NCBI RefSeq assembly: GCF_004010195.1
Contig: NC_057719.1
Coordinates: forward strand, 9,711,112-9,775,111
From: Chiloscyllium plagiosum
Lineage: Eukaryota
Direction of reading: 5' to 3'
Length of the DNA stretch: 64,000 nt
Made by a program: the position numbers and the translations under genes. The notes beneath the pieces were generated by a model. That model did not search any database, was not told the DNA's origin, and saw only the letters and a list, made by a program, of their open reading frames with translations. This document shows, one piece after another, positions 19,776 through 55,183 of the stretch. Within the stretch, counting starts at the first letter, position 1; every line of letters starts with the position of its first letter.

Positions 19776-21069
19776 CGATGGATCACATCAAAAATTCATG
19801 ATCCATTATTCAATGCAGTTATTAACTTATTTAAGTGTTTCGTTCACTCAGCAGGTAAGCAAACAAATGTGGGCACGTTAACCTGTACCCAGTGTAATTT
19901 CAACATGTATGAAATTTAAAAGACTTACAGCTAGTAGCAGGAGACAAATACTGACCCTCAGAGACTAGAATAGGCTCCAAGGTTCAGTGCACACAATGGT
20001 ACAACTTGACAAACTTAACCAGCAATTGCAGATCATCCACTCCATCTAGCTCCAGGACATCAATAAAGATGTGATGTTCAGATGTCAGCCCTGAAGGAGA
20101 GTCATACCAGACTTGAAACGTTAACTCTGTTTTCTCTCGCAAAGGTGGTGCTGAGTTTCTCCAGCATTTCTGTGTTTGTTTCAGATTTCCAGCATCCAAA
20201 GTCCATAAAGGTGTTAGACCTCAGCTCTTACTGTCATCCATTACACTTAAACCAACAGCAATGAGGCTAGTTTTAAAAGAGAGATCTTTTATTTAACCTC
20301 TGAGCTCAATCAATGGTAGAAAACATCCAGGAGGATAGTGGAAAGTGATAACCTTAGAATCATACAACATGGAAACAGACTCTTCAGCCCACTCATTCAT
20401 GTTGACCCAGTTTCCTAAATTGAACTAGTCCCATTTTTCTGTATTCGATCCATATCCTTCTAAAGCTCTCCTATTTATGTACCCGTCTAAATGTCTTTAA
20501 TTGTTGTGATTGTACCCGCTTCCAACCTCTCTTCTGGCAGCTCGCACATACACACCACCCTCAGTATGAAAATATTGCCCCTCAGGTCCCTTTCAAATCT
20601 TTCCCCTCTCACCTTCAACCTATGCCCTCTAGTTTTGGATTCCCCTACCATGCTTTGCTATTCACCTTACCGATGCCCTTCGTGAATTTATACACAGTGG
20701 AGCCAGTGGATCGATAATTGCAGCACACCAATGGTCACAGGCCTCCAACCTGAACAACAATCCTCTACCAGCACTCTCTCTCTCTCTCCTACCATCAAGC
20801 CAATTCTGTGTCCAGTTGGCTCTCTCTCTGTCCTCAAAGCATCCCTGAAGAGGTCAAACACCTTCACTGCACCAGGGGAGTCACTTCCCTGTGACCGATC
20901 AAACTGGAGGACGTTCATCTGTCAAGGCACCCAACGCATTGGGAAATTTCAGCAGGTAGGTGCAGGAGCAAAGCTGAGATGTGGTAGGGAGAGAGCAAAT
21001 TTTGTGCGAAGATTTGTAGCTCGGGTGCTCGTTGTTGTGGTTCTGTTCGCCGAGCTGGAAATTTTTGTT

Positions 21070-21109
21070 GCAAACGTTTCGTCCCCTGGCTAGGCGACAT
21101 CATCAGTGC
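21070..21109 (-). ncRNA. Minimal type I hammerhead ribozyme motif (mirror copy, sense to the neurexin pre-mRNA)
   Basis: Exact reverse complement of 21267-21306. Confidence 0.75.
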
Positions 21110-21266
21110 TTGGGAGCCTCCTGCGAAGCGCTTCTTTGATGTTTCCTCCGGTGTTTATAGTGGTCTGTCCCTGCCGCTTCCGGTTGTTACAACCGGGAGC
21201 GGCAGGGACAGACTACTATAAATACCGGAGGAAACATCAAAGAAGCGCTTCGCAGGAGGCTCCCAA

Positions 21267-21306
21267 GCACTGATGATGTCGCCTAGCCAGGGGACGAAAC
21301 GTTTGC
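21267..21306 (+). ncRNA. Minimal type I hammerhead ribozyme motif
   Basis: GCA-CUGAUGA-U-GUCGCCU(AGCC)AGGGGAC-GAAA-CGUU-UGC: stem I GCA/UGC, stem II 6 of 7 bp, self-complementary ACGU at stem III. Confidence 0.75.
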
Positions 21307-21431
21307 AACAAAAACTTCCAGCTCGGCGAACAGAACCACAACAGAGAGCAAATCTCCAAATGAGCCAACCCTTCAAGCAACACCTTCCCCACACCTGGCA
21401 GAGACTGCAGGTTGTGCACTGTACATTAAAC

Positions 21432-22190
21432 TGGAATAAATACAGCCAGATGGACATAATAGGAGTTCCCTGACTGGGTTGTTAATCTGGTCCTATCAGG
21501 GAGCCCTGGCTGACAGATATAAACAGGAGTGCTGAAGACTTCCTCGTGGGTCTGCTCCTGGGCCTGGCCAAACTGGCCATAAACAGGTCCAGGCAGCGGG
21601 CCGTGGAGGGAGTCAATAGGGCTGACTGCCTGCCCCTCTTCCTCAGTTACGTTAGAGCCCGGGTATCCTTGGAGAAGGAGCATGCGGTGCCCACCAACAC
21701 CCTGGAGTTGTTCAGGGAGAGGTGGGCACCGCAAGGAGTGGAGTGTATTATTTCCCCCTCCAACTCTATTTTGATTTAATCCCTGCCCTCCCCTTCACTG
21801 TTTGATCACACAGCATTGACCTTTGATGCGAAGGGCACTAACTTGTCACTGGCCACTCGGGTGTTTTCGTATCTTCCTGGTGGTGGAAAATGAATAAAGA
21901 TTCATGCACCTTGTGTCTCTCACTGTGTCTCACACCTACACACACACACACACACAACATGGGTGCTGGGGGAAAAATAAGCACTACCGCAGTTAGGCGG
22001 CAGTGTTGTGGGGGTTAAAAAAAAATAAACAGGAGTGTCTGAAAAAAGAGAGAAAAATAAACAGGAGTGTCAGAGATTCTGTTCACTCAGAGAACTGGCT
22101 CTGAGGGAGCCAAACCAGTGTCAAGTCATATGCACGTGTAAATACAGGGTGACCTGGTGATGGGATACCGGCCTCTGTGGAGTTATTTCA
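21432..22190 (+). mobile_element. Second copy of the short solo-LTR-like element, interrupted at its TATA box
   Basis: gagttccctga...gttaatctggtcc...ctgacagatataaacagg...ttctgttcact...ggagttatttca is shared with 2431-3248. Confidence 0.65.
21532..22056 (+). mobile_element. Tx1-like LINE 3' end (ORF2 C-terminus, 3' UTR, poly(A))
   Basis: LLLGLAKLAINRSR...YVRARVSLE...FRERWAPQG resembles L1/Tx1 ORF2 C-termini; 13-bp TSD ataaacaggagtg (21519-21531 / 22057-22069). Confidence 0.8.
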
Positions 22191-23129: not shown

Positions 23130-25288
23130 GAACATATTAGAACATAGAACATTACAGCAAAGCATAGGCCGTTCAGCCCGCAATTTCGCGCCAAACTATG
23201 AAACCAATCTGAAGCCCATCTAACCTACAGTATTCCATTATCATCCATATGTTTATCCAATGACCATTTAAATGCCCTTAAAGTTGGCAAGCCCATGACT
23301 TTTGCAGGCAGTGTGTTCCACACACTTTCTACTGAGTAAAAAAAGGCTCTCCCTGTCCACCCCATCTAACCCTCTGATTATCTTATATGTCTCAAATAAG
23401 TCACCTCTCAACCTTCTTCTCTCTAATGAAAACAGCCTCAAGTCCCTCAGCTTTTCCTCATAAGACTTTCCTCCATATCAGACAATATCCTGGTAAATTT
23501 CCTCTGAGCTCTTTCCAAAGCTTTTACATCCTTCCAAAAATGTGGTGACTAGAATTGTAAGCAATACTCCAAGTATGGCCACACCAGTGTTTTGGACAGC
23601 TGCAGCATGACCTCGTGGCTCCAAAACTCAATCCCTCTGTGAATAAAAGCTAACACACCGAATGCCTTCTTAATAAACCTATCAACCTACGTGACAAATT
23701 TCAGGGATCTATTTACATGACACCGAGATCTCTCTGTTCATCTACACCTGCAACATCCTTCAGCACTGTCCACAACTCCACCGACCTTAGTGTCATCTGC
23801 AAATTTACTAACCCATCCTTCCATGCCCTCATCTAGGTCATTTATAAAAATGACAAACAGCAGTGGCCCCAAAACAGATCCTTGCGGTACACACGAGGAA
23901 CTGAACTCCAGGATGAACATTTCCCATCAACCACTCTACCCTCTGTCTTCTTTCAGTTTGCCAATTTCTGATCTAAAACCACTAAATCACCCTCAACCCC
24001 ATGCTTCCATATTTTGTGCAATAGCCTACCATGGGAAACTTTATCAAATACCATACTGAAATCCACATACACCACATCAACCACTTTACCCTCATCCACC
24101 TGTTTGGTCACCATCTCAATGAACTCAATAAGATTTATGAGGCATGACCTACCCTTCACAAAACCATGTTGACTATCCCTAATCAATTTATTCCTCTCTA
24201 GATGATTATAAATCCTATCTCTTATAACCTTTTCCAACACTTTACTTACAACCAAAGTAAGGCTCACTGGTCTATAGTTACCAGGGTTGTCCCTACACCT
24301 CTCCTTGAACAAGGGGATAGCATTTGTTATCATCCAGTCTTCTGGCAGTATTCCTGTAGATAATGACGACATAAAGATTAAAGCCAAAGGCTCTGCAATC
24401 TCCTCCCTGGCTTCTCAGAGAATCTGAGGATAAATCCCATCCGGCCCAGGGGACTTAGCTATTTTCATGCTTTCCAGAATTGTGAACACCTCCTCCTTGT
24501 GAACCTCAATCTCATCTAGTCTCAGCCTGTATCGCAAAATTCTCCTCCACAACATAGTATTCAGACTGGAAAAAGACAAACAAAAAATATTCATTTAGTG
24601 CTTCCCCTATCTCCTCAGACTCCATGCACAACCTCTCACCACTGTCCTTGATTGGCCCTAATTTTTCCCTAGTCATTCTTTTATTCCTGATATACCTATA
24701 GAAACGTTAGGGTTTTCCTTGATTCTGTCTGCCAATGCCTTCTCGTGTTCCCTCCTGGCTCTTCTTAGCTCTCTCTTTAGGTCCTTCCTGGCTAACTTGT
24801 AACTCTCAAGCACCCTAACTGAGCCTTCACATCTCATCCTAACGCAAGCCTTCTTCTTCCTCTTGATAAGAGATTCAACTTCCTTAGTAAACCACGGCTC
24901 CCTTGCTCGACCATTTCCTCCCTGCCTGACCGGTACATACTTCTCAAGGACACGCAGTAGCTGTACCTTGAATAAGCTCCACATTTCAATTGTGCCCATC
25001 CCCTGCAGTTTCCTTCCCCATTCTCTCCATCCTAAATCTTGCCTGATCACATCATAATTGCCTTTCCCACAGCAATAACTCTTGCCATGCAGTATATACT
25101 TATCCCTTTCCATTGCTAAAGTAAACATAATTGAATTGTGGTCACTATCACCAAAGTGCTCACCTACCCCCAAATCTAACACCTGGCCGGGTTCATTACC
25201 TAGTACCAAATCCAATGTGGTCTCGTCCCTTGTTGGCTTGTCTACATACTGTGTTAGGAAACTGTCCAGCACACACTGGACAAAAACT
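23130..25288 (-). mobile_element. CR1 LINE, 5'-truncated (endonuclease to 3' tail), same family as 8752-12036
   Basis: [35 protein letters not shown] and FADD fragments. Confidence 0.92.
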
Positions 25289-25817
25289 ATATTGATCGGG
25301 TTACAGTTTGTGAGGCATGGAGGAAGCTCATGCCGAGTATAGCTTTTGGGATTAACCAGATGAGCTGAATGGCCTGATTCCAGGTAAAAAAGGAGATTTT
25401 AGATTTAGATTCAGATTTTATTGTCACATGGACTCAGGAGTACAGTGAAAAGTGACTAATGTCGTTCCGCACGGCGCTATCGTAGGTACAAAGGTTACAA
25501 GGTACAAAAAGGTCCCAATGTGGTCTCGCCCCTTGTTGGCTTGTCTACATACTGCGTTAGGAAACCGTCCAGCACACACTGGACAAAAACTTTATTGATC
25601 GGGTTACAGTTTGTGAGGCATGGAGGAAGCTCATGCCGAGTATAGCTTTTGGGATTAACCAGATGAGCTGAATGGCCTGATTCCAGGTAAAAAAGGAGAT
25701 TTTAGATTTAGATTCAGATTTTATTGTCACATGGACTCAGGAGTACAGTGAAAAGTGACTAATGTCGTTCCGCACGGCGCTATCGTAGGTACAAAGGTTA
25801 CAAGGTACAAAAAGGTC
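25212..25817. repeat. Tandem duplication, 2 x 303 bp
   Basis: 25212-25514 and 25515-25817 differ at 4 positions by my count. Confidence 0.95.
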
Positions 25818-26673
25818 ACGTACTACATCGTAAAATAAAAGTTAAGAAGTTAAGCATTACAGGCCTTCATAGAATTAGTAGAAAAACAAAAAATATAAGA
25901 ATTAGGAGCAGGATTATGCTATCGGGCCAATTGAGTCTGCTCCACCATTCCGCTAATCTCTTTGTGGACTCAGCTCCACTTACCTACCCACTCACCACCA
26001 ATTCCTGTACTGTCCAAATATCTATCTATCTTTGCCTTAAAGACATTCAAAGTAGCGTCAACTGCTTCACTGGGCACAGAATTTCACAGATTCACAATCC
26101 TTTGGGCAAAACATTTCCTACTCAACTTAGTCCCTCCTAAATCTGCTCCCCCTTAGGTCTACAAGAAATAAAGTAAGAGTTAACATTAAAGTCCTTCTTA
26201 ATATAAACTAGAAAATAAAGGATTGAAGTTATAAGTTTAACAGTATTTGATGAGTGCTTGTTGGGGTCCCACTTTCCTGTGTTCAGCTCGCTCTCAGATG
26301 TCTCAAAGTGCCTTCTAGCTGATTAATTGCGTTTGGAGTAAAGGTAAAGTCATCATTGTCCTACTTTCTCCTTAGAGAGGGATAACTGGTGGTGAGTTTA
26401 ACCTGTAGGTCACTTCACCTCAGGTAAGGGGGCAATGTTGAGAAGGCAGGACCTTTGTGGTGATCTCAGCCAGATCAGGAATTGAACCTGTGCTGTTGCT
26501 GTTATGCTCCATCACCAATCCAGCCAACTGAGCTAACTAACACCGTCGGCTTTTGAGGTGTAGTCACTGTTACAATGCAGGAAATGTAGAATACAACTTG
26601 TGCACAACAAAATCCCACAAGGAGTGATAATGACCCGTCATGTTATCGTGTTACTGGCATAGGAATAAATAAT

Positions 26674-26799
26674 TCCTATGCCATTCCTTAAGAAGGACTT
26701 ATGCCCAAAACGTCGATTCTCCTGTTCCCTGGATGCTGCCTGACCTGCAACACATTTTCAGCTCTGATCTCCAGCATCTGCAGACCTCAATTTCTCCTC
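26674..26799 (+). mobile_element. Short Penelope-derived repeat with degenerate hammerhead core
   Basis: ccttaagaaggacttatgcccaaaacgtcgatt...gatgctgcctgacctgc; TSD taggaataaataat (26660-26673 / 26800-26813). Confidence 0.65.
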
Positions 26800-27952
26800 T
26801 AGGAATAAATAATGGTCAGGAGACCAGAGGTAGCGCCCTTGCTCTTATTAAAAAAAAACTGTGCCATGGAATCTCTTAGATCATAGAACATAGAACAGTA
26901 CAGCACAGGAACTGGCCCTTCAGCCCACTATGTTTGCGCCAACCATGATACTATTCTAATCCCATCTGCCTGTACATTGTCCACATCCCTCTATTTCTAT
27001 TGCCTGCCTGTTCATGTGTCTCTTAAATTTTGTTATTGTATCTGCTTCTCCCACCTGCCCTGGCAACTTGTTCAATGCATCTACTACCCTCTGGGTCAAA
27101 AAGCCTTCCCCCTCTCACCTTAAACCTATGCCCCTTGGTGTCTGGATAGAGGCTCCGATTATCCACCCTATCCAAGCCTCTTATAAGTGCATATACTTCT
27201 ATCAAGCCGCTCCCGCCCCCACACACCCCACTTAGCCTCCGATTTTGTCCAATATCTCATTGGAAGGATAGCATCACCCATGGTGCAGCATTCCCTCAGT
27301 ACCGTGGGGGAATGCCAGTTTTGGTTTTTGCTAGCAAGCTCTAGAATTAGACTTGAGCCCAGAAACGAGTGACTTGGAGATGGGAGCATTACCCAGTGAT
27401 GCACAGCTAACACCCATTTTATGTAATTTGGACATAATGCACAGTTAATATTTAGAAACAAGAGTTGGGCAAGAGCTTCACTGGGATAAAGACTGAAAGA
27501 TTATTCTTGAACTGTCTGGCAATCATAATAATGCTTCAGAAATGTCAACCTGTCCAGGCATGCTACAATGTACCTCTGGAGAAGGTGGAACTTGAACCTG
27601 TGCCTCCTGATTCAGAGCTAGAGACACCACCATTGTGTGATGAAAGCTCCAAAAGCATATTCTGTGGTTCTCAGCAAGTGTTACACATCTCCTGAAAGCA
27701 CCCAGTTCATTCTGAGTGATGAACCATCCCTGTGACTTAAACATCAATGTTTACATCAAGGGTTTACTTAAAGGAGGCAAAGGGAAATATCTATTATCTA
27801 TTGGCATTAAGATAATCTTCAAAAAGTATTGCACTGACATATTTATTTCAGGCTGAAATCAGCTAAGTTCTCATTAGTTTTCTCCTGGCTAATGTGCTCT
27901 GAATGCAAGAAGGTAAAAAGGAAATCTTGCACTTTGTTGATGTTTAGTACAT

Positions 27953-29749: not shown

Positions 29750-31495
29750 GATTTCATTTGATGCATTATTGTCACTTGTACTGAGATACAGTGAGAAGTA
29801 TTGTTATGCATGTTAACCAGAAAAATCATACCTTACATAAAAACATCATGGTATTGAACAGAATGCAGAATGCCATGTTACAGCTACAGAGAAGTTGCAG
29901 AGAAAGAACAACTCTAATATATGAGAGGTCCATTCATTAATCTGATAAGGAGCTGTTCTTTAAACTGTTGGTACGTGCTTCAACCCTTTGTACCTTCTGT
30001 CCAATGGAAGAGGGTGCGAGAGAGTATAACCAGGGAGGTGCCTTTGATGATGTTGGCTATTTTCCTGAGGCAGCAGAAGAATAGATGGAGTGAAAGAAAG
30101 GAAGGCTGGTTTTCATAATGGACAGAGCTGCATTCACAACTCTGTAATTTCTTGCAGTCTACAGTAAAGCAGTTGCCATACCAAGCTGTGATGTATCTGG
30201 ATAGGATGCTTTCAATGGTGCATCTATAAAAACTGGTACTGAATAAACCGAATTTCCGTAGCCTTCTGAAGACAGTGTCGATGTGGATGGATCAGGACAG
30301 ATTGTTGATTATATTTATTTACTCCGAGCAACTTGAAGCTATTGACCATCCCTACTTCAGCACCATTGTTGCAGACAGGCACCTGTCCTCCACTCTGCTT
30401 CCTGAAGTTGATGATCAGCTCCTTCATTTTGCTGATATTGAGGGAGAGTTTGTTCTCCTTACACTGTGCCACTAAGCTGTCTATCTCTTTCCTGCACTCT
30501 GTCTCATTGTTGTTTGAGATCCGACCCACTACAGTGGTGTCATCAGCAAATTTGTAAATGGAGTTAGAGCTGAATTTAGCCACACAGTTGTGAGTGTATA
30601 AGGAGTAGTGTAAGGGGCGGAGGGCACAGCCTTGTAGGGCACCAATGTTGAGGATTATTGTGATGGAGATGTTGTCACCTATACTTAATGATTGCAGTCT
30701 GTGGGTCAGCAAGTCAAAAATCCAGTTGCAGAGGGGGGAAAACAGAGTCTTGGAGTTTGGAGATGAGTTTTGTTGGAATTATGGAGCGAAGGTGGAGCTA
30801 TAATCAATAAATATGAGCCTGATGTGGATGTCTTTGCTATCTAGATGTTCCAGGGATGGGTGTCGGGCCAGGGAGGTGGCATCTGCCCTGGACATATTGA
30901 TGAAGGACTTTTGCTGAAAACGCAATTCTCCTGCTCCCCGGATGCTGCCTGACCTGCTGTGCTTTTCCAGCACCACATTCTCGACTCTAATCTCCAGCAT
31001 CTGCCATCCTCACTTTCACCTTTTGTGACCGTAGGCGAATTGTGGTGGATCAAGGCAACCTGGGAGAGTGGAGTTGATGTGCGCTGGTACTAACCTCTCG
31101 AAGCACTTCATAATGATGGATGTCAAAGCTACTGGGTGGCTGATTTTTCTTTGGCACCAGGATAGTGGTTTTCTTAAAACAGGTGGGAACCTCAGACTGT
31201 AGTAAGGAGAGGTTAAAGATATCAGCGAGTACTCCCTGCCGCTGGTCTGCACAGGATCTGGGTACATGGCTGGACACTCCATCTGGGCCGGTCGCTTTCT
31301 ATGGGTTCACTCTCAAGAAGGCAGACCTGATCCCTGCAATGGTGACCATGGGTACAGGAGCACATGAGGCTGTCGAGGCAGGTGACATCATTTCACTGCC
31401 CTTCTATTCAAAACGAGCGTAGAATGCATTGAGCTCATTGGGGAGGGATACATTATTGTCAGTAACACTACTTGACTTCACTTTGGAGCCTGTGA
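29750..31495 (-). mobile_element. Rex1/Babar-like LINE, interrupted by a Penelope-derived repeat (~30897-31020)
   Basis: [36 protein letters not shown]. Confidence 0.88.
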
Positions 31496-32007
31496 TGATG
31501 GGCAGCTCAGCAGAATGAGGTAACACAGCCAAGTCACACTAGCTGCACACAGAGTCATACCGCACGGAAAACAGGCCCTTCAGTTAAACTGGTCCATGCT
31601 GAACATAATCCTATACTAAACTAGTCACACCCACCTGCTCCTGACCCACATCTCTCTAAATCATTCCTATTCATGGACTTATCAAAATGTCTTTCACCCT
31701 TGTAATTGAATCCACATCCACCACTTCCTCAGAAAGCTCATTCCACAAGCGAATGGCCCTCTGCGTAAAACAAAATTGTCCTTCATGTATTTTTTAAACC
31801 TCTCTCTACAAACTCAGATGATGCTGAATAAACCACTTCTATTCTCACTTTGGTTCTGAAGAAGAGTCATATCAACCTCAAAACATGAACGTGGTTTCTC
31901 TTTCCTTAGATCCTGTTGAATTTCTCCAGCAGTCTGTTTTTATTTAAGATCTTTTGTATTTCTCTTTACTTTTCTTTCAGAATTTGTATTTATGTGCCCT
32001 GGATTAT

Positions 32008-32290
32008 GGGCGGCACGGTGGCTCAGTGGTTAGCACTGCTGCCTCACAGCGCCAGAGACCCGGGTTCAATTCCTGCCTCAGTCAACTGTCTGTGTGGAGT
32101 TTGCACATTCTCCCTGTGTCCGAGTGGGTTTCCTCCGGGTGCTCCGGTTTCCTCCCACAGTCCAAAGATGTGCAGGGTAGGTGAATTGGCTATGCTAAAT
32201 TGCCTGTAGTGTTAGGTGTAGGTGGCTCTTCAGAGGGTCGGTGTGGACTTTTTGGGCCGAAGGGCCTGTTTCCACACTGTAAGTAATCTA
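32008..32290 (+). mobile_element. HE1-type SINE
   Basis: A and B boxes plus core as in 6571-6901. Confidence 0.9.
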
Positions 32291-33183
32291 ACAATGGTTT
32301 GGGTTTCCCCTTGTCTAGATCACCCTTCCCACAAACTGTGTTGATAATCATAGGAAACTCCATGAGATCTTCCCTCAGACTCCGATTTCCCAGTGGAAGA
32401 TAGTCCAGCTGCTAAACAATGTGCAAAAGTGAATGGAAATGTAGTTGGAAAACATATTCCAAAACTGACCTTTTTCAGGGAAGTTAAAAAAAATTTATTG
32501 GTTTGGGAAATTAAAATTCAAGTATTTTACAAACATCTTCGAATGATATCGGTTATTAATTAGGTATGATACATTAATTGCATTTGTATTCTTAAACCGG
32601 TTCTTGAAAAGCTGTGCAAGTACTCTAGGCTACCATCTTAATAACACACTTCTCTTCCTGTGTAACCTAATCAATGATTATGTAAGCCACTGCTAGATTA
32701 AAATTGGTCTCATTACAGCCACAGATGTCTGCATTAACATTTTTAATGAGTTTGATTCAACCTTTTGGTTCCTCCAACAAAGGTTTATAAAAAATCCTAC
32801 CACCTGTGACTTTTAAGTGTAACACTTAGATTAAATTTTCTCAAGTGACATGGAAATTTGTTGCAGCTGTGATGACATAAGTCAGGAGTAACCCTTTACA
32901 TGCCATAGATTGAATTTAATTCACCTAATCACAATGTTTCCTCTCTATTTTGGAGTGGAAGAGTAATTTGTTTCATTGCATGGTCATTTGAACAGCTTTA
33001 TGACTACTTTATGTCTCCCTTGATGCAATGGTAGCGTCCTTACCTCTGACATGAGGAGGCCTGGATCCAGGTCCCACATGTTCCAAATGTATGACATAAA
33101 ATGTCTATACACCTCTGGGAAGTCAGGCCTGACTAGCAGGGACTGATTTCTGCATGTGCCTTCATGTGAATGGTTTGACCCAA

Positions 33184-33497
33184 GGGGCAGCACGGTGGCT
33201 CAGTGGTTCGCACTGCTACCTCATAGCACCAGGGTTCAAGGTTTGATTCCAGCCTTGGGTGACTGTCTGTGTGGAGCTTGCACATTCTCCCAGTGTCTGT
33301 GTGGGTTTCCTCTGGTGCTCCAGTTTCCTCCCACAGTCCAAAGATGTGCAGGTTAGGTGAATCAGCCATGCTAAATTGCCCATTGCGTTAGGTGCATTAG
33401 TCAGGGGGAGAAGGGGTTTGGGTGGGTTACACTTCGGAGGATCGGTGTGGACTTGTTGGGCTGAAGGGCCTGTTTCCACACTATGGGTAATCTAATC
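33184..33497 (+). mobile_element. HE1-type SINE
   Basis: A and B boxes plus core. Confidence 0.9.
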
Positions 33498-35574
33498 GAA
33501 AGATCATCTTACGACTGGATAAGTCAAATTCCACACTAAAAGCTTGATCTGGTCTTCTTCTGGTTTCAATGAGGTGAACTTTCATTGAAACAATCAGGCA
33601 ATGCTGCAGATTTGGTTTTAACAATAATGTAACCTATTACACAAAATAAATTCATATAAAATAGAATAATCTAAAATTATTTGCATGTAACACAAGATTA
33701 GATTTTCAAATCTGATATGGTAAACTACACTCCAATCAGTTCCGACAACACCCTTTCACAGTACTCAAACACCAGACAAAGGCGTCCCTTCTCCATCATA
33801 CATCAGGTTTGACTTAGATATAATTTAGTCTGATTGCCTCCTCCAGGAGACTTCATACAACCAAGTTTAGACATATGCAGCTTGAAATACCATTTTCAGG
33901 GCTTTAACAGAATATCTCTGCTCCGGAATTTTCAAACTAACATCTTACACTGAAGTAACTTATTTCTTAACTGTTTCTAAACAATCACCTTTCTCAGGAA
34001 CAGCTGTCTTAGACATCCCTCTTCAGACAAGACTTGGCAAACCTGAGAAGAAAAAAGGCTTTCTTCAAGATATTGGGTATTCCCACTGAGCTAAAAGAAA
34101 ATTCCAGAATCTTCTAACTAAATCCTAATACATATCGCTGCTTACACTGCTCATAAAATTCACCTAATGAAAACAAAACCCTTTTAGTCTCCAGAAAGTC
34201 TCTATCTCCTACAGAAATACTTTCAAATTAATCAATAAACCACGTCATTGACATAGACAAGTCCTATATGACACGAGTTCAAATTTAAATTCAAAAATAA
34301 ATATTAAAACACACATCACCTGGAAACAATATTTCCCGGTTGTTAGAATTTGACAAACATTAATACTTCTGCACTTCCTTTGATAGGTAATGACACAAAG
34401 GATTGCTTGCACCACGCATGTATGACTGAAAACGAGGCATGTTACCAAAGCTTCTCATTTGCACTCAGAGGACAAATGCAAGAATGCCAAATTTCAAACT
34501 ATCACAAATAAGTTATACTACAAAAAGAAAGTCAACTCTGGCTGGGTGAGGTGTAGAGGTAGCAACAGGGAACTAAGTGGTCCCCGCTTCCAGATAATTC
34601 AAAGCAAAGCACTAGATGTGAACATATTGCTTTTGATTGTACAGAATTGGTCCCTGTGCATGCCATTCCTAGGAAGCACAAGTGAACCATGATATTAATT
34701 CAACGTCTCAAATAGGTTCTTAGTGTAGTTAGTAGCACACTTAGGATTGTTCAGCAATTGTCCTCTGACTCGGTCTCTGTGAACAAAGAAATATCTTCAA
34801 TTACCCAAGAGTGACATAGGATGGAGAGTGGGCACAACCACACAAGTATGTTCGGGCTGCCTCATACTGGGAAGTCTAACTTTGCAACAAAACACGGAAG
34901 TGAAAGGTTTCCTTCCATTTTGAATCAGGAGTCTTCACAGGGAGTATTTCTGGTTCTTTTTTTTAAATTCAAACCATCTGTCATTTACAGTATCTGAGAA
35001 GTGATTCTACAATAATTCTTGATAATTTAATAGCGTGAGCTCTCACATTTGTCTACCTGTTTAACTCTCGCCCAATTCCTTATCTGTGTCTGTTATATTT
35101 CCTTAGCCCTGTGTTTCACTCTGCCTGGATACCAAATCCCATCCGGCAGAAGCAGAGGACTTCTGGAATTTCCAAGACGAATGACTTGAGACAAAAGATG
35201 ATTAACATTAGAAGTTTGAAACTTGTTATTGCATTTTAGTCACTGTGCCACGCTCTGTTGCAGATAATCATTTCATTTAACAGTGTGTGAACCAAAATTA
35301 CAACTGAAATTAACATTCTTAACGTGCCGTATAAAAAGGAATTCTGACATTTGGCTTTATGAAAAAGTACTTTCATTCCCTTTTCATTCTTTCTCTTCAT
35401 TTCACTGCTTCCACACTGTCAGGATTCTATGATTTGCTTCTCCCTCTCATTGAACTCTATTATTCTTTTATTTCATCCAATTCTTGATCAGTCTTTTGTT
35501 ATTCCCTGGTTTTCACTTGTTTCCAGTTTTAGATCTCTTAATTCCTTTCTTTTCAGTCAAATCAAAACCAACAG

Positions 35575-36145: not shown

Positions 36146-36293
36146 CCTTGTCCAGAAGTAGGGTGCTGGATCCAAAATTTTAACACGGCTTCCTTTCCAT
36201 GGATGCTGCCGGACTTGCTGAGTTTTACCAGCAATTTCTGTTTCTATTTACGATCCTTGTTCCTGTACTTACTTGGGATACGGTGCGGGCATG

Positions 36294-36512
36294 CCGGTGT
36301 TGGACTGGGGTGGACAAGGTCAGAGGTCACACAATACCAGGTTCTGGGCCGACAGGTTTATTTGAAATCACAAGCTTTGAGAGCACTGCTCCTTCATCAG
36401 ACAACGTCTTGGTGACTTCACCCTGACGAAGGAGCAGCGCTCTGAAAGCTTGTGATTATAAATAAACCTGCTGGACTATAACCTGGTGTCTGTGACTTCT
36501 GACCTTGTTCAC
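36294..36512. mobile_element. Inverted pair of a second hammerhead-bearing Penelope-derived repeat family
   Basis: 36294-36400 (-) and 36423-36512 (+) are diverged reverse complements. Confidence 0.7.
36418..36455 (+). ncRNA. Minimal hammerhead ribozyme motif
   Basis: UCAC(C)-CUGACGA-A-GGAGC(AGC)GCUCU-GAAA-GCUU-GUGA; self-complementary AGCU at stem III. Confidence 0.6.
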
Positions 36513-37143
36513 TCAGGATAGGCATCAATGCAGGGACCTCAAACTGCTGTTTCTCACTCAGTGCTGTTCTGCGAGCCCAGGAGTATGCAACACTAACCCT
36601 CATAATGGTCTCTCCAACCCTCCTGCTTCAGAACCTGTGACACTTTTATTTTGAGCGAGTCACTTTCCACATTTCTGTTCATAACATGCAATTACTAACA
36701 TCGCACAGATTTCTGACAATGAAGTGACTTTAAGAATAATTAGTCTCTACTTGCATTCACAGGCCCAGCATTGCCTTACTCTCCTCTGCAATCTGCAGGG
36801 GTTATTGAACAGGGGTCAGTAGCTCAGCAGTCTCTGTGGGGAATATGTATGTGTGCTACCATTAACATTACTGGGACAGTAATGAATAGGGAGGCGCCAA
36901 CGAGTGATGAGGGGGGTGGGTCAAAAACTTTCACAAGGTTTGTCTCTAACTTCCTCTAATTCATCCCATCTCAAACTAACCTTTCCTGATATAATGGTAG
37001 AAATTGCAGGAGGTATGGCTGGTATAATGTGAGACTGAGTTATCATCAGAGAATCCCTACAGTGTTGAAGCAGGTATTCGGCCCATCAAATGCACATCAC
37101 CCCTCCAACAAGCATCCCTCCCAAGATCCAACCCTCTACCCGA

Positions 37144-39548: not shown

Positions 39549-39737
39549 ATTCCTGATGAAGGGCTTTTGCCCGAAATGTGGATTTTACTGCTCCTCGGAT
39601 GCTGCCTGAACTGCTGTGCTTTTCCAGCACCACTAATCCAGAATCTGGTTTCCAGTATCTGCAGTCATTGTTTTTACCTTTTTCTAGCACCACTCTAACC
39701 TAGACTCTGATTTCCAGCATCTGCAATACTCATTTTT
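39549..39737 (+). mobile_element. Penelope-derived repeat with hammerhead core (cleavage triplet mutated)
   Basis: CTGATGAagggcttttgcccGAAAtgtg; 19-bp TSD gcacaYttcaagagctgtg (39530-39548 / 39738-39756). Confidence 0.75.
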
Positions 39738-44530: not shown

Positions 44531-44847
44531 GCCATAGATTTGCCGATCCACCCAGCCTGTACAGATCATGCCAATCTGGGATGGGAAAGCACTCCACAGT
44601 CCTCCACACCATGAACACCATTGGGGTGGAAGTGGAGTAATTGCAGGATCTGCATCCCTCCAGTATTTGGCCTGGCCTCCCCATCTCGAAGTCCACCATG
44701 GCAGGACACCACCTTCTGCCCAAGGTCATTTTCAAGCTGGCATTTTGAATTGAAGCAGACTTCTTATTTTGTCTTAAATGAAGAGGGAAAGACAAGTTGG
44801 TGGAAACACATTTAAATTCAGGTGTTCTTTGAAAGACTCTACAACCA

Positions 44848-46395
44848 TTGAAGGAGGAGGTACTGGATGTCTTGAAATGCACAAAGGTGGATAAATTCCC
44901 AGGACCTAATCAGGTGTACCACAGAACTCTGTGGGAAGGCAGGGAAGTGATTGTTGGGCCTCCTGCTGAGATATTTGGATCATTGATAGTCACAGGTGAG
45001 GTGCCGGAAGACTGGAGGTTGGCTAATATGGTACCATTATTTAAGAAAGGTGGTAAGGACAAGCCAGGGAACTATAGACCAGTGAGCCTGACGTTAGTGG
45101 TGGGCAAGTTGTTGGAGGGAATCCTAATGGACAGGATTTACATATATTTGGAAAGGCAAGGACTGACTAGGAATAGTCAACATGGCTTTGTGCTTGGGAA
45201 ACCATGTCTCACAAACTTGATTGAGTTTTTTGAGGAAATAACAAACAGGATTGATGAGGGTAGAGCGGTAGATGTGATTTATATTAATTCAGTAAGGCAC
45301 TCAACAAGGTTCTCATGGAAGACTGGTTAGCAAGGTAAGACCTCATGGAATACAGGGAGAACTAGCCATTTGGATACAGAACTGACTCAAAGGTAGAAGA
45401 CAGAGTTTCAGACTGGAGGCCTGTGACCAGTGGAGTGCCACAAGGACCGGTGCTGGGTCCACTACGTTTTCATTATTTATATAAATGATTTGGGTGTGAG
45501 CATAAGAGGTATAGCTAGTAAGTTTGCAGATGACATCAAAATTGGAGGTGTAGTGGACAGTGAAGATGGTTACCTCAGATGACAACTGGATCTTGATCAG
45601 ATGGGTCAATGGACTGAGGAGTGGGAGATGGAGTTTAATTTAGATGAATGCGAGGTGTTGCATTTGGGAAAAGCAAATTTAGCAGGACTTATACACTTAA
45701 TGGTAAGGTCCTAGGGAGTGTTGCTGAACAAAGAGACCTTGGAGTGCAGGTTGATACTTCTTTGAAAGTAGAGTCACAAGTAGATAGAATAGTGAAGAAG
45801 GCGTTTGGTATGCTGTCATTTATTGGTCATATTATTGAGTACAGGAGTTGGGAGGTCATGTTGCAGTTGTACAGGACTTTGGTTAAGCCACTTTTGGAAT
45901 ATTGCATGCAATTCTAGTCTCCTTCCTATCTGTTGTGAAACTTGAAAGGGTTCAGAAAATATTTACAAGGATGTTGCCAGGGTTGGAGGATTTGAGCGAT
46001 AGGGAGAGGTTGAATAATTTAGGGCTGTTTGCTCTGGAGCATCAGATGCTGAGGGGTGACCTTATAGAGGTTTATAAAATCATGAGGGGCATGGATTGGA
46101 TAAATAGACAAAGTATTTTCCCTGGGGTCAGGGAGTCCAGAACTAGAGGGGCATAGGTTTAGGCTGAGAGGGGGAAAGATAAAAAAAGGGACCTCAGGGG
46201 CAACTTTTCCACACAGAGGGTGGTGTGTGTGTGGAATGAGCTGCCAGAGGAAGTGGTGGAGGCTGGTACAATTGCAACATTTAAAAGGCATCTGGATGGG
46301 TATATGATAAGAAGGGTTTGGAGGGATATAGGCTGGGTGCTGGCAGGTGGGACTAGACTAGGTTAGGATATCTGGTCGGCATGGACGAGTTGTAA
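44848..46395 (+). mobile_element. CR1 LINE (RT to 3' UTR), frameshifted
   Basis: PEDWRLANMVPLFKKG, NYRPVSLT, QHGF and LIEVYKIMRG. Confidence 0.92.
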
Positions 46396-48277: not shown

Positions 48278-48919
48278 CTGCGCAAGGAGAACAAAGAAAG
48301 GAAAAGAAAAAGCTCCATTCTGTCTGCTCTGTCTCTCGGAAAGAGCGATCATCAGTCCCACTTCCACTGCATCTTGCACAAGACTATCGCTGGTGGTGTT
48401 GGGACAATTCACTAATTGTGAAACATGTGGGTTGTTTTTGGGTCTTGTCTTGTTCTGAGCTTGCTGATGGTTTGACTCAAAGTGTACAAGTTGTGGTGAT
48501 GTGTTGGTAATGTCACTCAGCTAGTAATCCTGAAACAAACCCAGAAATCACTGGAAAAGCGCAGTTCTGAGGAAGGGTCACTGGACCAGAAACGCTAACT
48601 CTGATTTCTTTCCACAGATGCTGTCAGACCCACTGTGTTTTTCCAGCAATTTCTGTTTTTATTTCAGGGTTATGAGCCCAGCAACACCACCACCACATCA
48701 ACACTTCCTCTATACTTTGAGTGAAACCATCAGCAAGCTCAGAACAAGACAAGACCCAAAAACAACCCACATGTTTCACAATTAGTGAATTGTCCAAACA
48801 CCACCAGCGATAGTCTTGTGCAAGATGCAGTGGAAGTGGGACTGATGATCGCTCTTTCCGAGAGACAGAGCAGACAGAATGGAGCTTTTTCTTTTCCTTT
48901 CCTTGTTCTCCTTGCGCAG
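48278..48919. repeat. Inverted duplication with ~208-bp arms (48278-48486 / 48711-48919)
   Basis: Near-perfect reverse complement; also seen as mirrored ORFs 48176-48412(-) and 48785-49027(+). Confidence 0.95.
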
Positions 48920-49834
48920 AAAAATTCAGTTCTGAGGAAAGGTCACTGGACCAGAGCCGTTAACTCGATTTCTCTCCGCAGATGCTGCCAGACCTGCTAT
49001 GCTTTTCCACGCAATTTCTGTTTTTAGTTCTGATTTCCAGCATTTTCAATTCTTTCAGCTTTTAGTTAGTAATCCAGAACACCAAGTAAATATCCCGGGG
49101 CCATGGGTTCAAACCTCATTGCGATAGAGGGTGAAGTTTGGTTTCAACAAAAAGCTCCCACAAGGTGTTATAGAATGACAATGATGGAAAATAGGAATTG
49201 ACTGGGAATAAAAACGCACAAAGGCTTGGGACAGGCAGTGGTAGACTGCAAAGGTCACTGGACAAGTAATCCGAAAGCCCAAACTAACGACAAGACTTGC
49301 TGCTAAACTAAATGAAGTTAAAGTATGGAATACAAAAATGCTGGTCTCAGTAAGGAAGACCATGCAACCCCCATGGCCAATTGTTGTGAAAAACTATCCT
49401 CTTTTCTGATGCCCTTTAGGGGCCGGGAAATCTGCCCTCTTTACATGGTCTGGCCTACATGTGACTCCAGACCCACAGCAAAGTGGTTGACTGGGCAATT
49501 AGGGATGGCCATTAAATGCTCGATCAGCCAGCATTTAGAAAGTCTTTAAAAAGACTCCAGTACACGATGAGGAATAGGTGGCCAATCTCAGCAGCTGGTA
49601 GAAAGATAGCTGGCCATTCAGCCCGGGATGTGGATACTAATCCAGCCCAAAATGAAGCCATGGAGATCAGAAAAAGGATTCCCACTGCTGTGCACCTGTA
49701 ATATTTCTCCACATCGCACACCACATATTGGAAACTTTACACAAAACCAGGGACCCAAAGACATTTCACAGTCAGGTGAAGGTTGGTGTTGGAATACAAC
49801 AATGGGAATTAAGGCTGGTATCAAACCATGCAAT

Positions 49835-50220
49835 AGATAGAGTCATCATGTTGTACAGCAGGGAAACAGGCCCTTCATTTCAACTCACCCATCGCAACCA
49901 GATATCCTAAAGTTATCTAGTCCCATTTCCTAGCTTTTGGCCCATATTCCTCTAAACCCTGCCTATTCATATACCCATCCAGATGCCTTTTAAATGCTGC
50001 AATTGTACCAGCCTCCATCACTTCCTCTGGCAGCTCATTCCAGACACACACCACCCTCTGCATCAAAACATTTCCCCTTAGGTCCCTTTTAAATCTTTTC
50101 CCTCTCACCTTCAACCTATGCCCTCTTGTCTTGGAGTTACCTACCCTGGGGAAAAGACCTTGGCTATTCATCATATCCATGCCCCTCATGATTTTATAAA
50201 CATCTATAAGGTCCCCTCAG
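49835..50220 (-). mobile_element. CR1 3' end
   Basis: TRGHRLKVRGKRFK...WNELPEEV. Confidence 0.88.
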
Positions 50221-50970: not shown

Positions 50971-51134
50971 GAGAAAGTGAGGGCTGCAGATGCTGGAGAT
51001 CAGAGCTAAAAATGTGTTGCTGGAAAAGCGCAGCAGGTCAGGCAGCATCCAGGGAGCAGGAGAATTGATGTTTCGGGCCTGAGCCCTTCTTCTGCCTGAC
51101 CTGTTGCGCTTTTCCAGCAACACATTTTCAGCTC
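50971..51134 (-). mobile_element. Penelope-derived repeat with short inverted arm
   Basis: Same family as 39549; TSD taaagcRgYaaacag (50956-50970 / 51135-51149). Confidence 0.7.
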
Positions 51135-53534
51135 TAAAGCGGTAAACAGTACATTTCTCAAATACTGAACTTTAATGCAATTATCGCAAGTAGTCGGCTC
51201 TCGGCAACCTTTTTAAGGGCAAAGTTAAATTATTATTTCAGCGGTTTATGCTGTAAATATAGTGTAACATATATATATATATGCCCCCTGCATTACATTT
51301 CTATGACTTAGTGTGTGTGCTTTACACTGATTCAGTGGACCTCTTGATTATCCGAAACTGGCACACCCCTGGTCCCATAGGTGTCAGTCAATAAAAAGAT
51401 TGCTGTTTATTGAAGCCAATCCTGGTCACCTAGAGCAGTGTCTTCTCCAGGTGTAACTGAGAGAGGAATTATACCATCACCTCTATTCTGGTCAGGAATA
51501 GCGGTGTCACTATTTGCTGCTTTCTTTGAGGAGCAGCCGTGTTCAATCTTAATTTTCTCTCCCTCACCACTTCCTTTCACTGCCTTCAAAATCCATGAGG
51601 TCGGTTTTGAAACAAATTTGAAATACTCTTGCAATTGTTATTGTTGACATCTAAGACCGACTCCAATAAATAGAGATGGAATAATATTCCTGTAGCGTGA
51701 AAGCAGGCCACTGAGCCCCATCGAATCCACACCAACCCTCTGAACAGCATCCCACACAAACACGGGGAGAATGTGCAAACTCCACACAGACAGATAGTCA
51801 CCCGAGGGTGGGACTGAACCCTGGTCCCTGACGCTGTGAGGCAGCAGTGCTAAACAATGCATTGCTGTGTCATCCTCATTCAAATGACATCATTTATCTT
51901 CCAGTACATTGCCCATCTACCCAGTCTTGCTGGTCTGAATTGAGATTGACCAGGTCCAGACTGTTTTGATCTCATATTAATGAACAGAATTCTCCGGTCC
52001 CCTTTGCAGGGGGTGGGGTGAGGGATAATGGTGGCAGGGTTGGGGGGTTTGGAGGCATGGGGTGGAATGTTCACCAGGTGGCCTTCCTGCCAACCACCCT
52101 GTTACACCCAACCTTTCCATAATTTTACATGGGACAGGCCAGCCATCCACTGTCACTTCCACTGTAGCCCTTAATGAAGGGCCACTTCCTGCCCTGTGTG
52201 TAGGATCTGGGATACAGGTCCACAGTTGTCCAGGACTGGTGGTCAACTATTTGCAAGTAACTTCCAGAGAGTTTATTTAAGTTTATTAAGAGGCAACAGT
52301 TTGGATGAAGTGCATTACTTAATTGGATAGAGAGTGTGCTCAACAATGAAGAGTGAGGATGGTTCGCTGATATCAGAATGCAAACAGGTGGCTGGTGCAG
52401 AGTTTGTAGATTCCCCGTAGCTTGTTGGGAACACGTGCTGCTCTCTTGCCAAAGGGGGCTTTGACTCAATGCAGAAATGCTGCAGAGCTCCCACCTGAGC
52501 CTACCCCCTCCTTTTCTGGTCCATCTTCAGCCTGAGGTGGTGGAAGTTGATGAGCACTGCTACCCCCATCTTGAAATATTCATCAAGGTTCTTTATTTCT
52601 AGCAGCTGGTAGTTTCTGTTATGACAACCACACATTTGAATCCTTCCAACCAATGAATACAGGACAGGTGCCCAGATATCACCTGCCCTATTACCCATTT
52701 CCCAGTGTCAGGTCAGTTTACATTACGGTAACAATGACTCCAGATGACTTGATACAGTGTACCAATCAGATGAATGAAAATCGCACTTGCACAGATAGGG
52801 GGGTGGACATGAGGACCACTCCACCACTTTGGGGTGTCAACATGGAAGCCTGACCCAAAATCCAAAACACTTCCGGGTTCTGTCATTGTGCACTTTCAGA
52901 CCGAGAAAGAAAACAACTTCCTTTCTGCCTGGAAATATTGGGGAGGCAGATTCAATTCACAATGAGTATGGGATAATGATTTAGATAGGGATGATGTGTA
53001 GGGAAATGGGGAAAAGGCACAAGATTGGCACAAAGGATTGGAGTCTGTGGATGGGCTGAAAGGTCTTCTGCGGCGCCATAATGATTCGGTGAATCTGAGG
53101 AAATCTTAAACTCTGCCTATTAATTGAGTACTACCTTACTTATAATTTAAAAGTATAATTTATTCAAGGTAAATTTCTTACATCAGCCTCTATTCTGTGG
53201 TATCCCTGACACAGGTGGTCCCACTCTGCCTGGCCTCTTCATTCAAGACCCCCACAGCACAAACCCGCCCACTGGGCCTCACCTCACCTCAGTGCCACAG
53301 GAGTTCTTCATTTACAGAGGTTCACACGAGAAATCAAAGCCCCAGAGTCATCACACAGGTGAAAATTTGTTTAAACTGCCATTCGGCCCCAACTGTCTAA
53401 GTTCCCAATTCGGGTTAAGAGAATAAGCACGCTAGAGATTTCATAAACAATTAAACAACTATTTATTGGAATATTGTAATCAAACTGTTTTGACCAGTGC
53501 CAAGAAAGAAACCTGAGTTGCTCACTTAAGCAAA

Positions 53535-54020
53535 AAGTAAAGTACCGCAGATGCTGGAAATCTGACACAGCCACCGAGAATGCTGGAGAAACTCAGCAGG
53601 TCTGGCGACGTCTGCAGAAAGATAAACAGAGTTAATGCTTGGAATCCAATTCTTTCAGCGCTGAGCTGAAGAGTCAGGCTGGACCCAAAATGTTAACTTG
53701 GCGAAAGTGGGGATTGCAGATGCTGGCGATCAGAGTCAAGATTTAAGTGGGGCTGGAAAAGCACAGCAGGTCAGGCAGCATCCGAGGAGCAGGAAAATCA
53801 ACATTTCAGGCAAAAGCCCTTCCTCAAGATTGAGGGATTTTCCTGATGAAGTGCTTTTGCCTGAAACGTCGATTTTCCTGCTCCTCGGATGCTGCCTGAC
53901 CTGCTGTGCTTTTCCAGCCCCACTTAAATCTTGACTCGAAATGTTAACTGTTTCACTGTCTATAGAGACGAGAAGACCTGCTGAGTACCTCCAGCATTTT
54001 CTGTGCCTATTTGGAATTGC
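53535..54020. mobile_element. Nested Penelope-derived inverted pairs (inner pair 53699-53938)
   Basis: Inner TSD aaatgttaact (53688-53698 / 53939-53949); CTGATGAagtgcttttgcctGAAACGTC at 53843-53870. Confidence 0.75.
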
Positions 54021-54119
54021 TAGCTTATAACTCTCTCCCCCTTTTGTTTAAAATTCCCATACAGCTACAGACACATAAAGAGACAAATCGAGCCTCAGGT
54101 ATTTTGGTTGGGTGAGGAA

Positions 54120-54240
54120 GAAGGGCTCATGCCCGAAACTTCGATTCTCCTGTTCCCTGGATGCTGCCTGACCTGCTGTGCTTTTCCAGCAACACATTTT
54201 CAGCTGTGATCTCCAGCATCTGCAGACCTCACTTTCTCCC
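54120..54240 (+). mobile_element. Penelope-derived repeat, 5'-truncated within the hammerhead core
   Basis: gaagggctcatgcccgaaacttcgatt...; TSD tgaggaa (54113-54119 / 54241-54247). Confidence 0.7.
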
Positions 54241-55183
54241 TGAGGAATAGAAATGTTGGAGATACTCAATTCTGGCACTGGTCTGGGTACAGGCAGGAAT
54301 GAATTGCCCTCTTTCGGCTTTGGTAAACTCCTGCTGAATCTTTGCTAATGACGCAACGTTGTGAGTACATCCATTCTCAGTCCATCATTCACAGCCTGAA
54401 GATTCACCCTGAAGGTATTTGTTTTTTCCATTTTTGCTTTCAATACAGGATTTGCAGAAAGAGCAGTTTGCAGGAAAATGGTGAGTGAGAACAACTACTA
54501 GGTGATTTTTTTTGTTACTTCTTCACACAGACTTTGCAGACTAGAGACTGCTCTTCCATTGTCAACAAACCGGCTGGAATCACTTGCCTAGGAGCCAGTC
54601 AAGTGCTTGTTACTATGCTATACTGAACCCACAACAACAGGTCAATAGAAAAACAAATCAAAGGGCTGGCTCTGTGCGAAACTGCCTTTGAACACAAATA
54701 AGAGTTGATATTTCTATTATTCTCCCCCGTTCTCTCTCAATATTTGAATAAGGCAACTTTGAAAATCCAATCAATGAGCTCCAGTAGCTTGCTTTTTAAG
54801 ACATAAACATCTGCCTTTACAGTTCCCCCTGGCTTAACCCTGCATTTTCTTCAGAACACAGTCTCGGACTGAGACGAGAAACAACTTGCTCCCCCAGGCC
54901 CCATGTCACGGAAAGTGGTTGAGGCCAAAGCATTGAATGTTTTCAAGGAGGAGTTAGGTGTAACTCTGAGAAGTAAAGGGATCAAAAGGAATGAGGGGAA
55001 GTGGGCACAGGGTACTGAGTTGGATGATCAGCCATGATCCCATTGAAGGCAGGGCAGGCTTGAAGGGCCGAATGGCTGACTCCTGTTACTATGAAAGTAA
55101 CGAGGAGGGACAGAATCAGGGAGGGAGGGAAATCAATAACTTTCAAAAAAAATCAAGATGATGTTAAATATTTATTTCTATAA

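Follow-up and report, generated by a model that had tools for sequence, protein, structure and literature searches.

The question raised by a 64,000-nucleotide stretch of the Chiloscyllium plagiosum genome (hereafter the window) is what kind of element left behind its many short repeats headed by a hammerhead ribozyme. Fifteen scorable heads are carried by 14 short insertions, which together amount to about 2.4 kb, or 3.8% of the called bases, at one insertion per 4.5 kb. A preliminary description of this DNA had proposed that the repeats would pass as generic SINEs and are in fact ribozyme-headed, non-autonomous Penelope derivatives, and all of the hammerhead sites that it cited are present. 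The reading that we favour, with a probability of about 0.7, is that autonomous Penelope-like retroelements (PLEs) of the endonuclease-bearing kind left them as 3' ends, each a pseudo-LTR plus tail, that were 5'-truncated and dead on arrival.

The heads show the boxes CUGANGA and GAAA, U16.1 and H17, with a G10.1-C11.1 pair opening helix II and a palindromic 15.1-16.1 segment that lacks a helix III loop. This motif is the min-HHR consensus of metazoan PLEs published in 2014 (Cervera & De la Peña 2014, PMC4209133), which Fig. S3 of that paper gives for PLE pseudo-LTRs as CUGANGAH, a stem II opening with G-C, GAAA, a palindromic NNU, and H; the kind of element has thus already been described. 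As in the window, the min-HHRs of that study form several consensus families per genome, occur mostly as lone motifs interpreted as truncated PLEs, and include pairs on opposite strands, there 100-700 bp apart. Compared by eye with Fig. S3, family D resembles the PLE-linked Clonorchis motif, family A the Acropora (Neptune) motif, and family C the painted-turtle motif, while the 56-motif alignment and Table S1 of the same paper hold no cartilaginous fish. The full-text literature yielded no description of these shark families in a search that did not extend to Repbase, Dfam and most subscription papers, and novelty is thus unproven; some of the families may be listed as ‘monomers’ in the tables of Li et al. 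2026.

Most cores are mutated, as had been noted, with every core letter kept in only four of the 15 heads. The palindrome ACGT/AGCT survives in seven, the other eight departing from it in one or two positions, chiefly the CpG; the 10.1-11.1 pair is G-C in seven, G-U in five and broken in three; and the extra base after A9 is A or U in all 15, in the register used. Helix I has three pairs in family D, three to four in three of the four B heads, and about two in most A heads, and its edge is also the cut-off edge of many copies. Stem II had been seen to differ between families and yet stay paired, and two-sided changes do separate the lineages (10.2 is G-C, A-U or U-A; 10.3 is G-C, A-U or C-G; 10.4 is C-G, U-A or G-C), indicating a shared structure by comparison rather than by a statistical covariation test. 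The architecture itself exceeds chance: allowing at most one core change and demanding a stem II of at least 3 bp and ACGT or AGCT, the window gave seven hits, whereas 12 first-order Markov resamples gave zero or one apiece and two in total. Five of the seven are sites of the preliminary description, and the remaining two (55515- and 63479-) are stray matches in other repeats. With the palindrome filter dropped, the window gave 23 hits versus 7-15 in the resamples. A scan of the window with Rfam returned no hammerhead family at E<=1, its seven hits being six miRNA-hairpin models and one sRNA, and energy folding of monomer and dimer, a method uninformative for this motif, did not return the hammerhead dimer.

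The four families had been called unrelated, a view that has to be revised, since by sequence similarity they form three lineages, with A and B related and C and D apart. The grouping of A with B follows from the homology of their tails: three better-kept B copies align locally to A with z mostly 5-22 (60 shuffles), the decayed B copy at 31856 with z of 0-4, and C and D reach no more than 4 against the other families.

Positions of heads are given below as those of C3. Family A (stem II gggc/gccc) includes plus-strand stumps at 26681..26802 (head 26687+, G5 and G12 changed; 14-bp target-site duplication, TSD), 30895..31030 (30897+, decayed; TSD not found) and 54117..54240 (54115+, truncated inside the core so that C3 and U4 are missing; either edge carries the same 7-bp direct repeat, without mismatch), as well as a plus-strand stump with a second tail in tandem at 39549..39737 (39553+, H17 changed to G; TSD of 19-22 bp). 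The 5' junction of 26681..26802 holds a short inverted copy of the upstream flank. Two further A insertions are fold-backs. That at 50971..51135 has its long arm on the minus strand, with a head that begins at G5 (C3 position 51094-), a headless short arm (51093-51135), a 31-nt tail and a 15-bp TSD with two mismatches. That at 53700..53936 is nested in a B head and carries heads 53827- (missing from the preliminary description) and 53843+ with intact core and weakened stem II, around an 11-nt centre, with a 34-nt tail and a 17-bp TSD with two mismatches. Family B (stem II of gagtc or gggtc type) is represented by plus-strand stumps at 20088..20200 (20091+, A9 changed; TSD borderline), 31852..31958 (31856+, heavily decayed; TSD not found) and 48925..49050 (48932+, A14 and A15.1 changed), by a plus-strand tail without a scorable head at 36178..36250, and by head 48567+ with an inverted partial tail (48520..48667), enclosed in a 288-nt inverted repeat (48278-48565/48632-48919). 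An old B fold-back at 53530..54025, with heads near 53660-/53664+ too decayed for scoring, is split by the A fold-back just mentioned. Family C is a head-to-head fold-back at 36283..36514, with heads 36400- (G12 changed) and 36423+ (intact), a 22-nt centre and a left arm about 25 nt longer. Family D is likewise a head-to-head fold-back, at 21001..21342 with its centre at 21188, intact heads 21106- and 21270+, an 11-bp TSD (20990-21000/21343-21353) and a left arm extended by a 33-nt tail.

Family D supplies the link to a coding element. One of its arms, 21151-20996(-), matches residues 2-53 of P0004, a reverse transcriptase protein of Chiloscyllium punctatum (XP_072406260.1), at 85% over 52 aa. 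A second frame, read from 21188-21096(-), aligns at 74% over 31 aa with residues 432-462 of P0016, a C. punctatum protein of 463 aa; the two proteins stem from distinct gene models, both of them partial. P0016 has a reverse transcriptase domain (Pfam) and, read by eye, a C-terminal motif set of GIY-YIG type, for which Pfam gave nothing in P0016 and E 0.024 in one relative (P0121). The start codons (ATG 21273/21276) and the stop (21284-21286) both lie in stem II, and the N- and C-terminus of the ORF are encoded in two frames. Family D is accordingly read from these alignments as the truncated end of a coding element of Penelope/Poseidon type that retains both ends of the ORF, a name of type and not a tree-based clade placement. 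A start codon in stem II is also known from Poseidon of Anolis carolinensis (Frangieh et al. 2024, PMC11167929); family D may differ in placing the stop codon there as well, in the other frame. Among other searches, phmmer with a 33-residue D peptide against 1.84 billion representatives returned two hits, both long tandem-repeat proteins and hence artefacts, P0016 against metagenome contigs gave 76 pattern matches of which none was confirmed, and a PDB search with a full-length relative gave none. A sequencing-run search for D, not counted as evidence, had no RNA run among the matches listed.

The insertion anatomy is shared more widely. The claim that many copies have TSDs of 7-19 bp held for five of the 14 insertions (one D and four A), in which they are clear and span 11-22 bp, with a score that 0.3% of 600 random placements attain; three more are borderline (score 7, reached by 3.8%), six stand at chance level, and none is clear in families B and C. 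Since the edges were placed by eye, this background is lenient. A one-sided extension occurs in all four fold-backs measured (33 nt in D, 25 in C, 34 and 31 in A). At the other end, all eight A and C heads whose limit is set by a TSD or by the centre of a fold-back start at most 22 nt from C3, mostly at most 13, and in the remaining A and B heads similarity ends within about 7 nt of C3. The 5' start of A-C copies is the ribozyme's 5' edge and not its cut site, and starts so close to C3 are not sufficiently explained by random truncation alone. PLE insertion units are known to include an inverted 5'-truncated copy and a one-sided tail of 30-40 nt (Craig et al. 2021, PMC8557442; Arkhipova et al. 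2013, PMC3846280), along with TSDs of 8-10 bp, captured host DNA and a pseudo-LTR bearing the first codons of the ORF (same sources); unlike those units, the copies here measure 110-340 nt and have TSDs of up to about 20 bp.

Being short, abundant and flanked by TSDs, with some copies palindromic, the insertions might be taken for tRNA-SINEs, LINE tails or fold-back DNA transposons whose likeness to a hammerhead is accidental. For D this is refuted by the match to a reverse transcriptase ORF, and for the insertions at large it is most improbable. ARAGORN found no tRNA genes, and a B-box-like match occurs in one of the 14 insertions versus all five copies of the window's separate SINE-like repeat of about 300 bp (background 0.11 per 100 nt). 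The absence of a tRNA head and B box sets the families apart from tRNA-SINEs, the window's LINE fragments do not match the insertions, and solo copies with unequal arms misfit the terminal inverted repeats of a DNA transposon.

Non-LTR retrozymes, which spread by self-cleaved circular RNA, resemble the insertions in that they too carry type I hammerheads, are non-coding and have a proposed PLE origin (PMC7229834; bioRxiv 10.64898/2026.07.22.740005). The hammerheads here are of type I, retrozymes with a mean consensus of 363 bp have been reported in one chondrichthyan genome (bioRxiv 10.64898/2026.07.22.740005), and in the window B head 48567 is followed 365 nt further downstream by a second B head of the same orientation, 48932. 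Against this reading, the spacer 48668-48919 has no other copy than its own inverted one, and the two heads have changed cores. Retrozymes consist of units repeated in tandem, head to tail, whereas these copies are solo or head-to-head stumps, and no tandem hammerhead-unit array appears among 10 TRF rows. Moreover, the copies start at the head rather than at the cut site, and paired heads lie mostly on opposite strands, so that a single transcript cannot carry two. A pile-up of RNA ends was not found in poly(A) single-cell reads, a poor test, and none of the 15 joints listed out of 126 is a circular-RNA junction at the cut site, the poly(A) library having been sampled to about 2%. Within the window the retrozyme explanation is largely refuted, and we consider it highly unlikely.

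Families A, B and C might instead be, as the preliminary description had it, non-autonomous, ribozyme-headed mini-elements of about 110-140 nt, with their own transcription unit and mobilized in trans by a PLE protein. Non-autonomous PLE derivatives are known (MRC1, PMC8557442), the clustering of A-C starts near C3 would suit a unit of fixed length, and no coding remnant was found in A-C. The searches behind this last point include one among proteins with the 42-codon open frame of family A, which gave no candidate, and a comparison of A, B and C with 123 fetched proteins, which gave no match but is a weak test, the proteins being relatives of D's ORF. The A/B tail was found in neither viral nor metagenome contigs. 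In the sequencing runs, one A copy was covered by 62,343 contigs in run X1 and 54,340 in run X5, and summed contig depth was about 3.2-3.7 million over the A head versus 4-5 on the flank, depths that do not convert directly into a copy number. The majority letters of family A restore the invariant core, with the palindrome regained by C at 39577, which makes up 72% of the depth in X1 and 79% of the reads in X21, and H17 by C at 39580 (83%, the rest T at 17%, X1); a changed G12 accounts for 11% of the depth in X1, and the variant rows listed, all but 11 of 51, include none for 39553-39565. In keeping with a discrete unit, one and the same fold-back junction, 39549/39588, is found in 21 X1 contigs, 15 X5 contigs and 10 X21 reads. 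Against such a unit, a minority of A copies appear to share sequence upstream of the head, because the C-rich loose ends before 39549 agree across all four runs, at eight of 30 columns by eye; such agreement, at 0.33-0.42, is low, and a single expressed locus could shape the consensus of the raw RNA run. Loose ends before 39550 are AT-rich, unlike these. A 15-letter piece of the upstream consensus has one match in the window (42208), beside no head, where 2.0 are expected by chance. Fold-back centres and junctions also vary among the window's insertions, a Pol III B box is absent from A, C and D and matched once, at background level, in B, and D, the end of a coding element, has identical anatomy. 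We hold independent mini-elements to be unlikely. For the preliminary description this means that Penelope derivation holds for D by protein match and is suggested for A, B and C by insertion anatomy, whereas ‘non-autonomous’ finds no support in D and is unproven in the other three families.

How truncated PLE ends could arise is suggested by published work on PLEs. The element's RT/GIY-YIG protein would nick the target and prime cDNA within its own RNA, using one or the other of two start positions that lie downstream of the hammerhead, some 30 nt from each other. The reverse transcriptase would then copy across the uncut ribozyme and usually stop a few bases from its 5' edge in A, B and C, and soon after that edge (81 nt) in D. 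Were both target strands primed, a head-to-head fold-back would result, in which the tail makes one arm the longer and a target duplication encloses the entire structure. The stumps, presumably inert, would later decay, often at CpGs within or beside the core. Anolis Poseidon likewise has an AC-rich tail between two reverse transcription start sites and extends both target strands (PMC11167929), and in vitro its insertion needs no ribozyme cleavage, uncut RNA serving as the template (same source). The retention here of heads whose cut site is on their 3' side is consistent with a main template of uncut RNA, and copies with a whole head that end at its 5' edge agree with the in vitro result.

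A different source for the A-C copies, which we think rather doubtful, is a short, discrete template with the edge of the hammerhead itself as its 5' end. It could take two forms, whose combined likelihood is what we have just graded. One would be strong-stop-like copying of the initial ~130 nt of Penelope mRNA, with reverse transcription running from the internal tail site to the RNA 5' end; the other would be a true ribozyme-headed SINE of ~130 nt moved by Penelope proteins. In the fly element the start site lies well upstream of the ribozyme (Schostak 2008, PMC2377424), which gives no support for a start at the head in that species. If a short template were the source, the copies would constitute a very large genomic record of Penelope reverse transcriptase stops and a handle on the ribozyme's purpose.

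Under the favoured reading, that these are truncated PLE ends, the consequence for annotation is that such stumps should be labelled Penelope ends and not SINEs or unknown repeats; in the whale-shark genome, Penelope is present and 10.8% of the sequence consists of unclassified repeats (PMC8455134). The mechanistic interest lies in the retention of the whole head and the stop at its 5' edge, which may make these insertions a map of where PLE reverse transcription ends.

All hammerhead sites cited in the preliminary description were found in the window, and 15 hammerhead motifs (heads) could be scored in one register. These sort by stem II into family A (gggc/gccc, seven scorable heads), family B (gagtc or gggtc, four), family C (ggagc/gctct, two) and family D (gtcgcct/aggggac, two). 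Two further family B heads near 53660-53700 have decayed too far for scoring, and one family B tail lacks a scorable head, giving a total of 14 insertions that occupy about 2.4 kb, or 3.8% of the window's called bases. With 63 kb of the window called, the insertions are confined to 34 kb (20088-54240), where three pairs are nested or adjoining, and no hammerhead-headed insertion was found at 1-20,000 or beyond 54,300. A hammerhead descriptor scan returned seven matches in the window, whereas none of 12 Markov resamples gave more than one (zero or one each). Sites of the preliminary description account for five of the seven, and the other two are stray matches in other repeats. The core is intact in 4 of the 15 heads, and its most frequently altered letter is G12 (4/15 heads), which forms a CpG with C11.1. 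Read by eye, stem II pairing is kept between lineages via differing base pairs. The families had been regarded as four unrelated ones, but the 95-nt tails of A and B align (60 shuffles; most z values are 5-22 where the three better-preserved B copies are concerned) whereas the C and D tails reach z of at most 4 against all others (60 shuffles), so that there are three lineages, with A and B related.

Other repeats share the window. A SINE-like family of about 300 bp with a B-box-like motif (6567-6902, 32003-32291, 33182-33501, 55182-55489 and 56087-56362) presumably resembles the shark HE1 SINE, and there are many LINE reverse-transcriptase (RT) fragments, which we take from their motifs to be CR1/L2-like, at 9025-10320(-), 23956-25398(-), 44833-45327(+), 7895-8752(+) and 30227-30778(-); their longest open stretch, 432 codons, adjoins an N gap at 10585-11558. 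A near-perfect (98% match) tandem duplication of 303 nt at 25212-25817 may have arisen recently or in the assembly, as an artefact. The hammerhead-headed elements themselves failed the test for tRNA-SINEs and also that for retrozymes, no tandem units being found.

The pattern first described is identical to the min-HHR consensus in Fig. S3 of Cervera and De la Peña 2014 (PMC4209133), a paper that also reports more than one family in a genome, motifs that are mostly single, pairs on opposite strands, and about 4,000 motifs in coelacanth and about 9,000 in Xenopus. The alignment in that figure is without cartilaginous fish. A 2026 preprint (bioRxiv 10.64898/2026.07.22.740005) proposes that the retrozymes of animals derive from Penelope-like elements (PLEs) and are non-autonomous and places them in one chondrichthyan. 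A search confined to full-text literature found no description of these shark families. The kind is already known, and these are additional members.

The anatomy of the insertions resembles that of PLEs. Head-to-head inverted structures make up 6 of the 14 insertions, and in all four measurable fold-backs the 3' end of one arm is longer, by 33 nt (D), 25 nt (C), and 34 and 31 nt (A). The insertion unit of endonuclease-bearing PLEs likewise comprises an inverted 5'-truncated copy and a one-sided tail, there of 30-40 nt, within a target-site duplication (TSD) (PMC8557442; PMC3846280); the tail has been attributed to two internal RT start sites and extension of both target strands (PMC11167929). 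One family A fold-back is nested in an older family B head, whose own sequence forms the TSD, and a review notes a tendency of PLEs to insert within or beside one another (PMC6765202). The assertion that many copies carry TSDs stands for 5 of the 14 insertions, in which the duplication is clear (11, 14, 15, 17 and 19-22 bp), but it is borderline in three and was not found in six; the chance estimate is lenient because element edges were placed by eye. The observation of hammerhead-headed repeats is upheld, once the kinship of A and B and the smaller number of clear TSDs are allowed for. At the 5' junction of one family A copy (26655-26683), a short stretch of the target flank upstream recurs in inverted orientation and creates a palindrome of 29 nt with the TSD inside it. 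A 288-nt inverted repeat at 48278-48919 surrounds the family B head at 48567 and stops just short of the B head at 48932; its arms are about 99% identical over the outer 200 nt or so and far less alike over the inner 90 nt or so, the duplicated DNA has no further match in the window, and the structure may represent captured flank, a recent fold-back or conversion.

Eight A and C heads have a TSD or a fold-back centre as their limit, and all of these start within 22 nt of core position C3, mostly within 13, and in the remaining A and B heads similarity is lost within about 7 nt of C3; family D arms run 81 nt further. This clustering of A-C starts is not predicted by random truncation, and could reflect a stall of the RT when it meets the ribozyme, an RNA with its 5' end at this position, or the existence of a short family in its own right. 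Alignment of four sequencing runs to the family A copy at 39549 gave 62,343 contigs in X1, 54,340 in X5 and 5,784 in X15, and 2,330 raw RNA reads in X21. The loose ends that precede 39549 (866 X1 contigs) show an agreement of 0.33-0.42 over the four runs, and most of them are flanks with no relation to each other. Even so, the plurality letters of these ends are rich in C, and all four runs concur in 8 of 30 columns, unlike the AT-rich loose ends before 39550; a minority of family A copies thus extend upstream into common sequence, which is what one would expect if a longer element had been truncated. In contigs clipped at 39588 (868 of them in X1) the loose part contains the head, which means that copies without a head are not dominant. 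One fold-back junction is repeated in 21 X1 contigs, perhaps because the site is a hot spot or because a composite was propagated. The majority letters also restore the losses of the window copy (C in 72% of X1 depth at 39577; C in 83% and T in 17% at 39580), and hence, over the 40 of 51 difference rows covered, the core of the family A consensus is whole, with G12 altered in 11% of X1 depth.

The interpretation first put forward is supported in part: Penelope ancestry holds for family D by its match to RT and GIY-YIG-type proteins, while no protein match supports it for A, B and C. A 40-residue translation from the D stem II had a sole match among proteins of 71-2000 residues, the Chiloscyllium punctatum RT protein XP_072406260.1 (E 1.3e-9), which tblastn widened to residues 2-53 at 85%. 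In a second frame, this arm also matches the C-terminal end of a 463-aa C. punctatum protein (74% over 31 aa). That protein contains an RT domain and, after it, a set of GIY-YIG-type motifs recognised by eye; Pfam GIY-YIG is weak in one relative and has no match in this protein. From these N- and C-terminal matches, the D ORF both ends and begins in stem II, where its stop (TAG, 21284-21286) and start (ATG, 21273/21276) lie. The D hammerhead at 21270-21300 is read in two frames, as the ORF's final codons and stop and as its first codons. The two closest full-length relatives, P0005 (fluke) and P0006, start M...KRL, the KR being read in family D from GAAA-CGU. Family D is accordingly the end of a coding element, of which no complete copy was seen, the two C. 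punctatum proteins being separate partial models. The host seems to be a shark near the source of these proteins. Since protein searches gave no link for families A, B and C, their PLE parent is one that we infer.

A likely mechanism, derived from published in vitro work and in agreement with the window anatomy, is that the element's protein would nick the target, cDNA would start some 60-100 nt downstream of the ribozyme, within the tail, the RT would pass through the uncut head and then halt, and priming of both target strands would give rise to fold-backs. Self-cleavage falls 3' of the core, so that a template cut in this way would yield headless copies; a single insertion of the 14 entirely lacks a scorable head. 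Minimal hammerheads cleave weakly, as dimers or with protein help (PMC4209133; PMC11167929). Given this weak cutting, the alteration of 11 of the 15 cores and the placement of paired heads mostly on opposite strands, the stumps left in the shark genome are probably inert.
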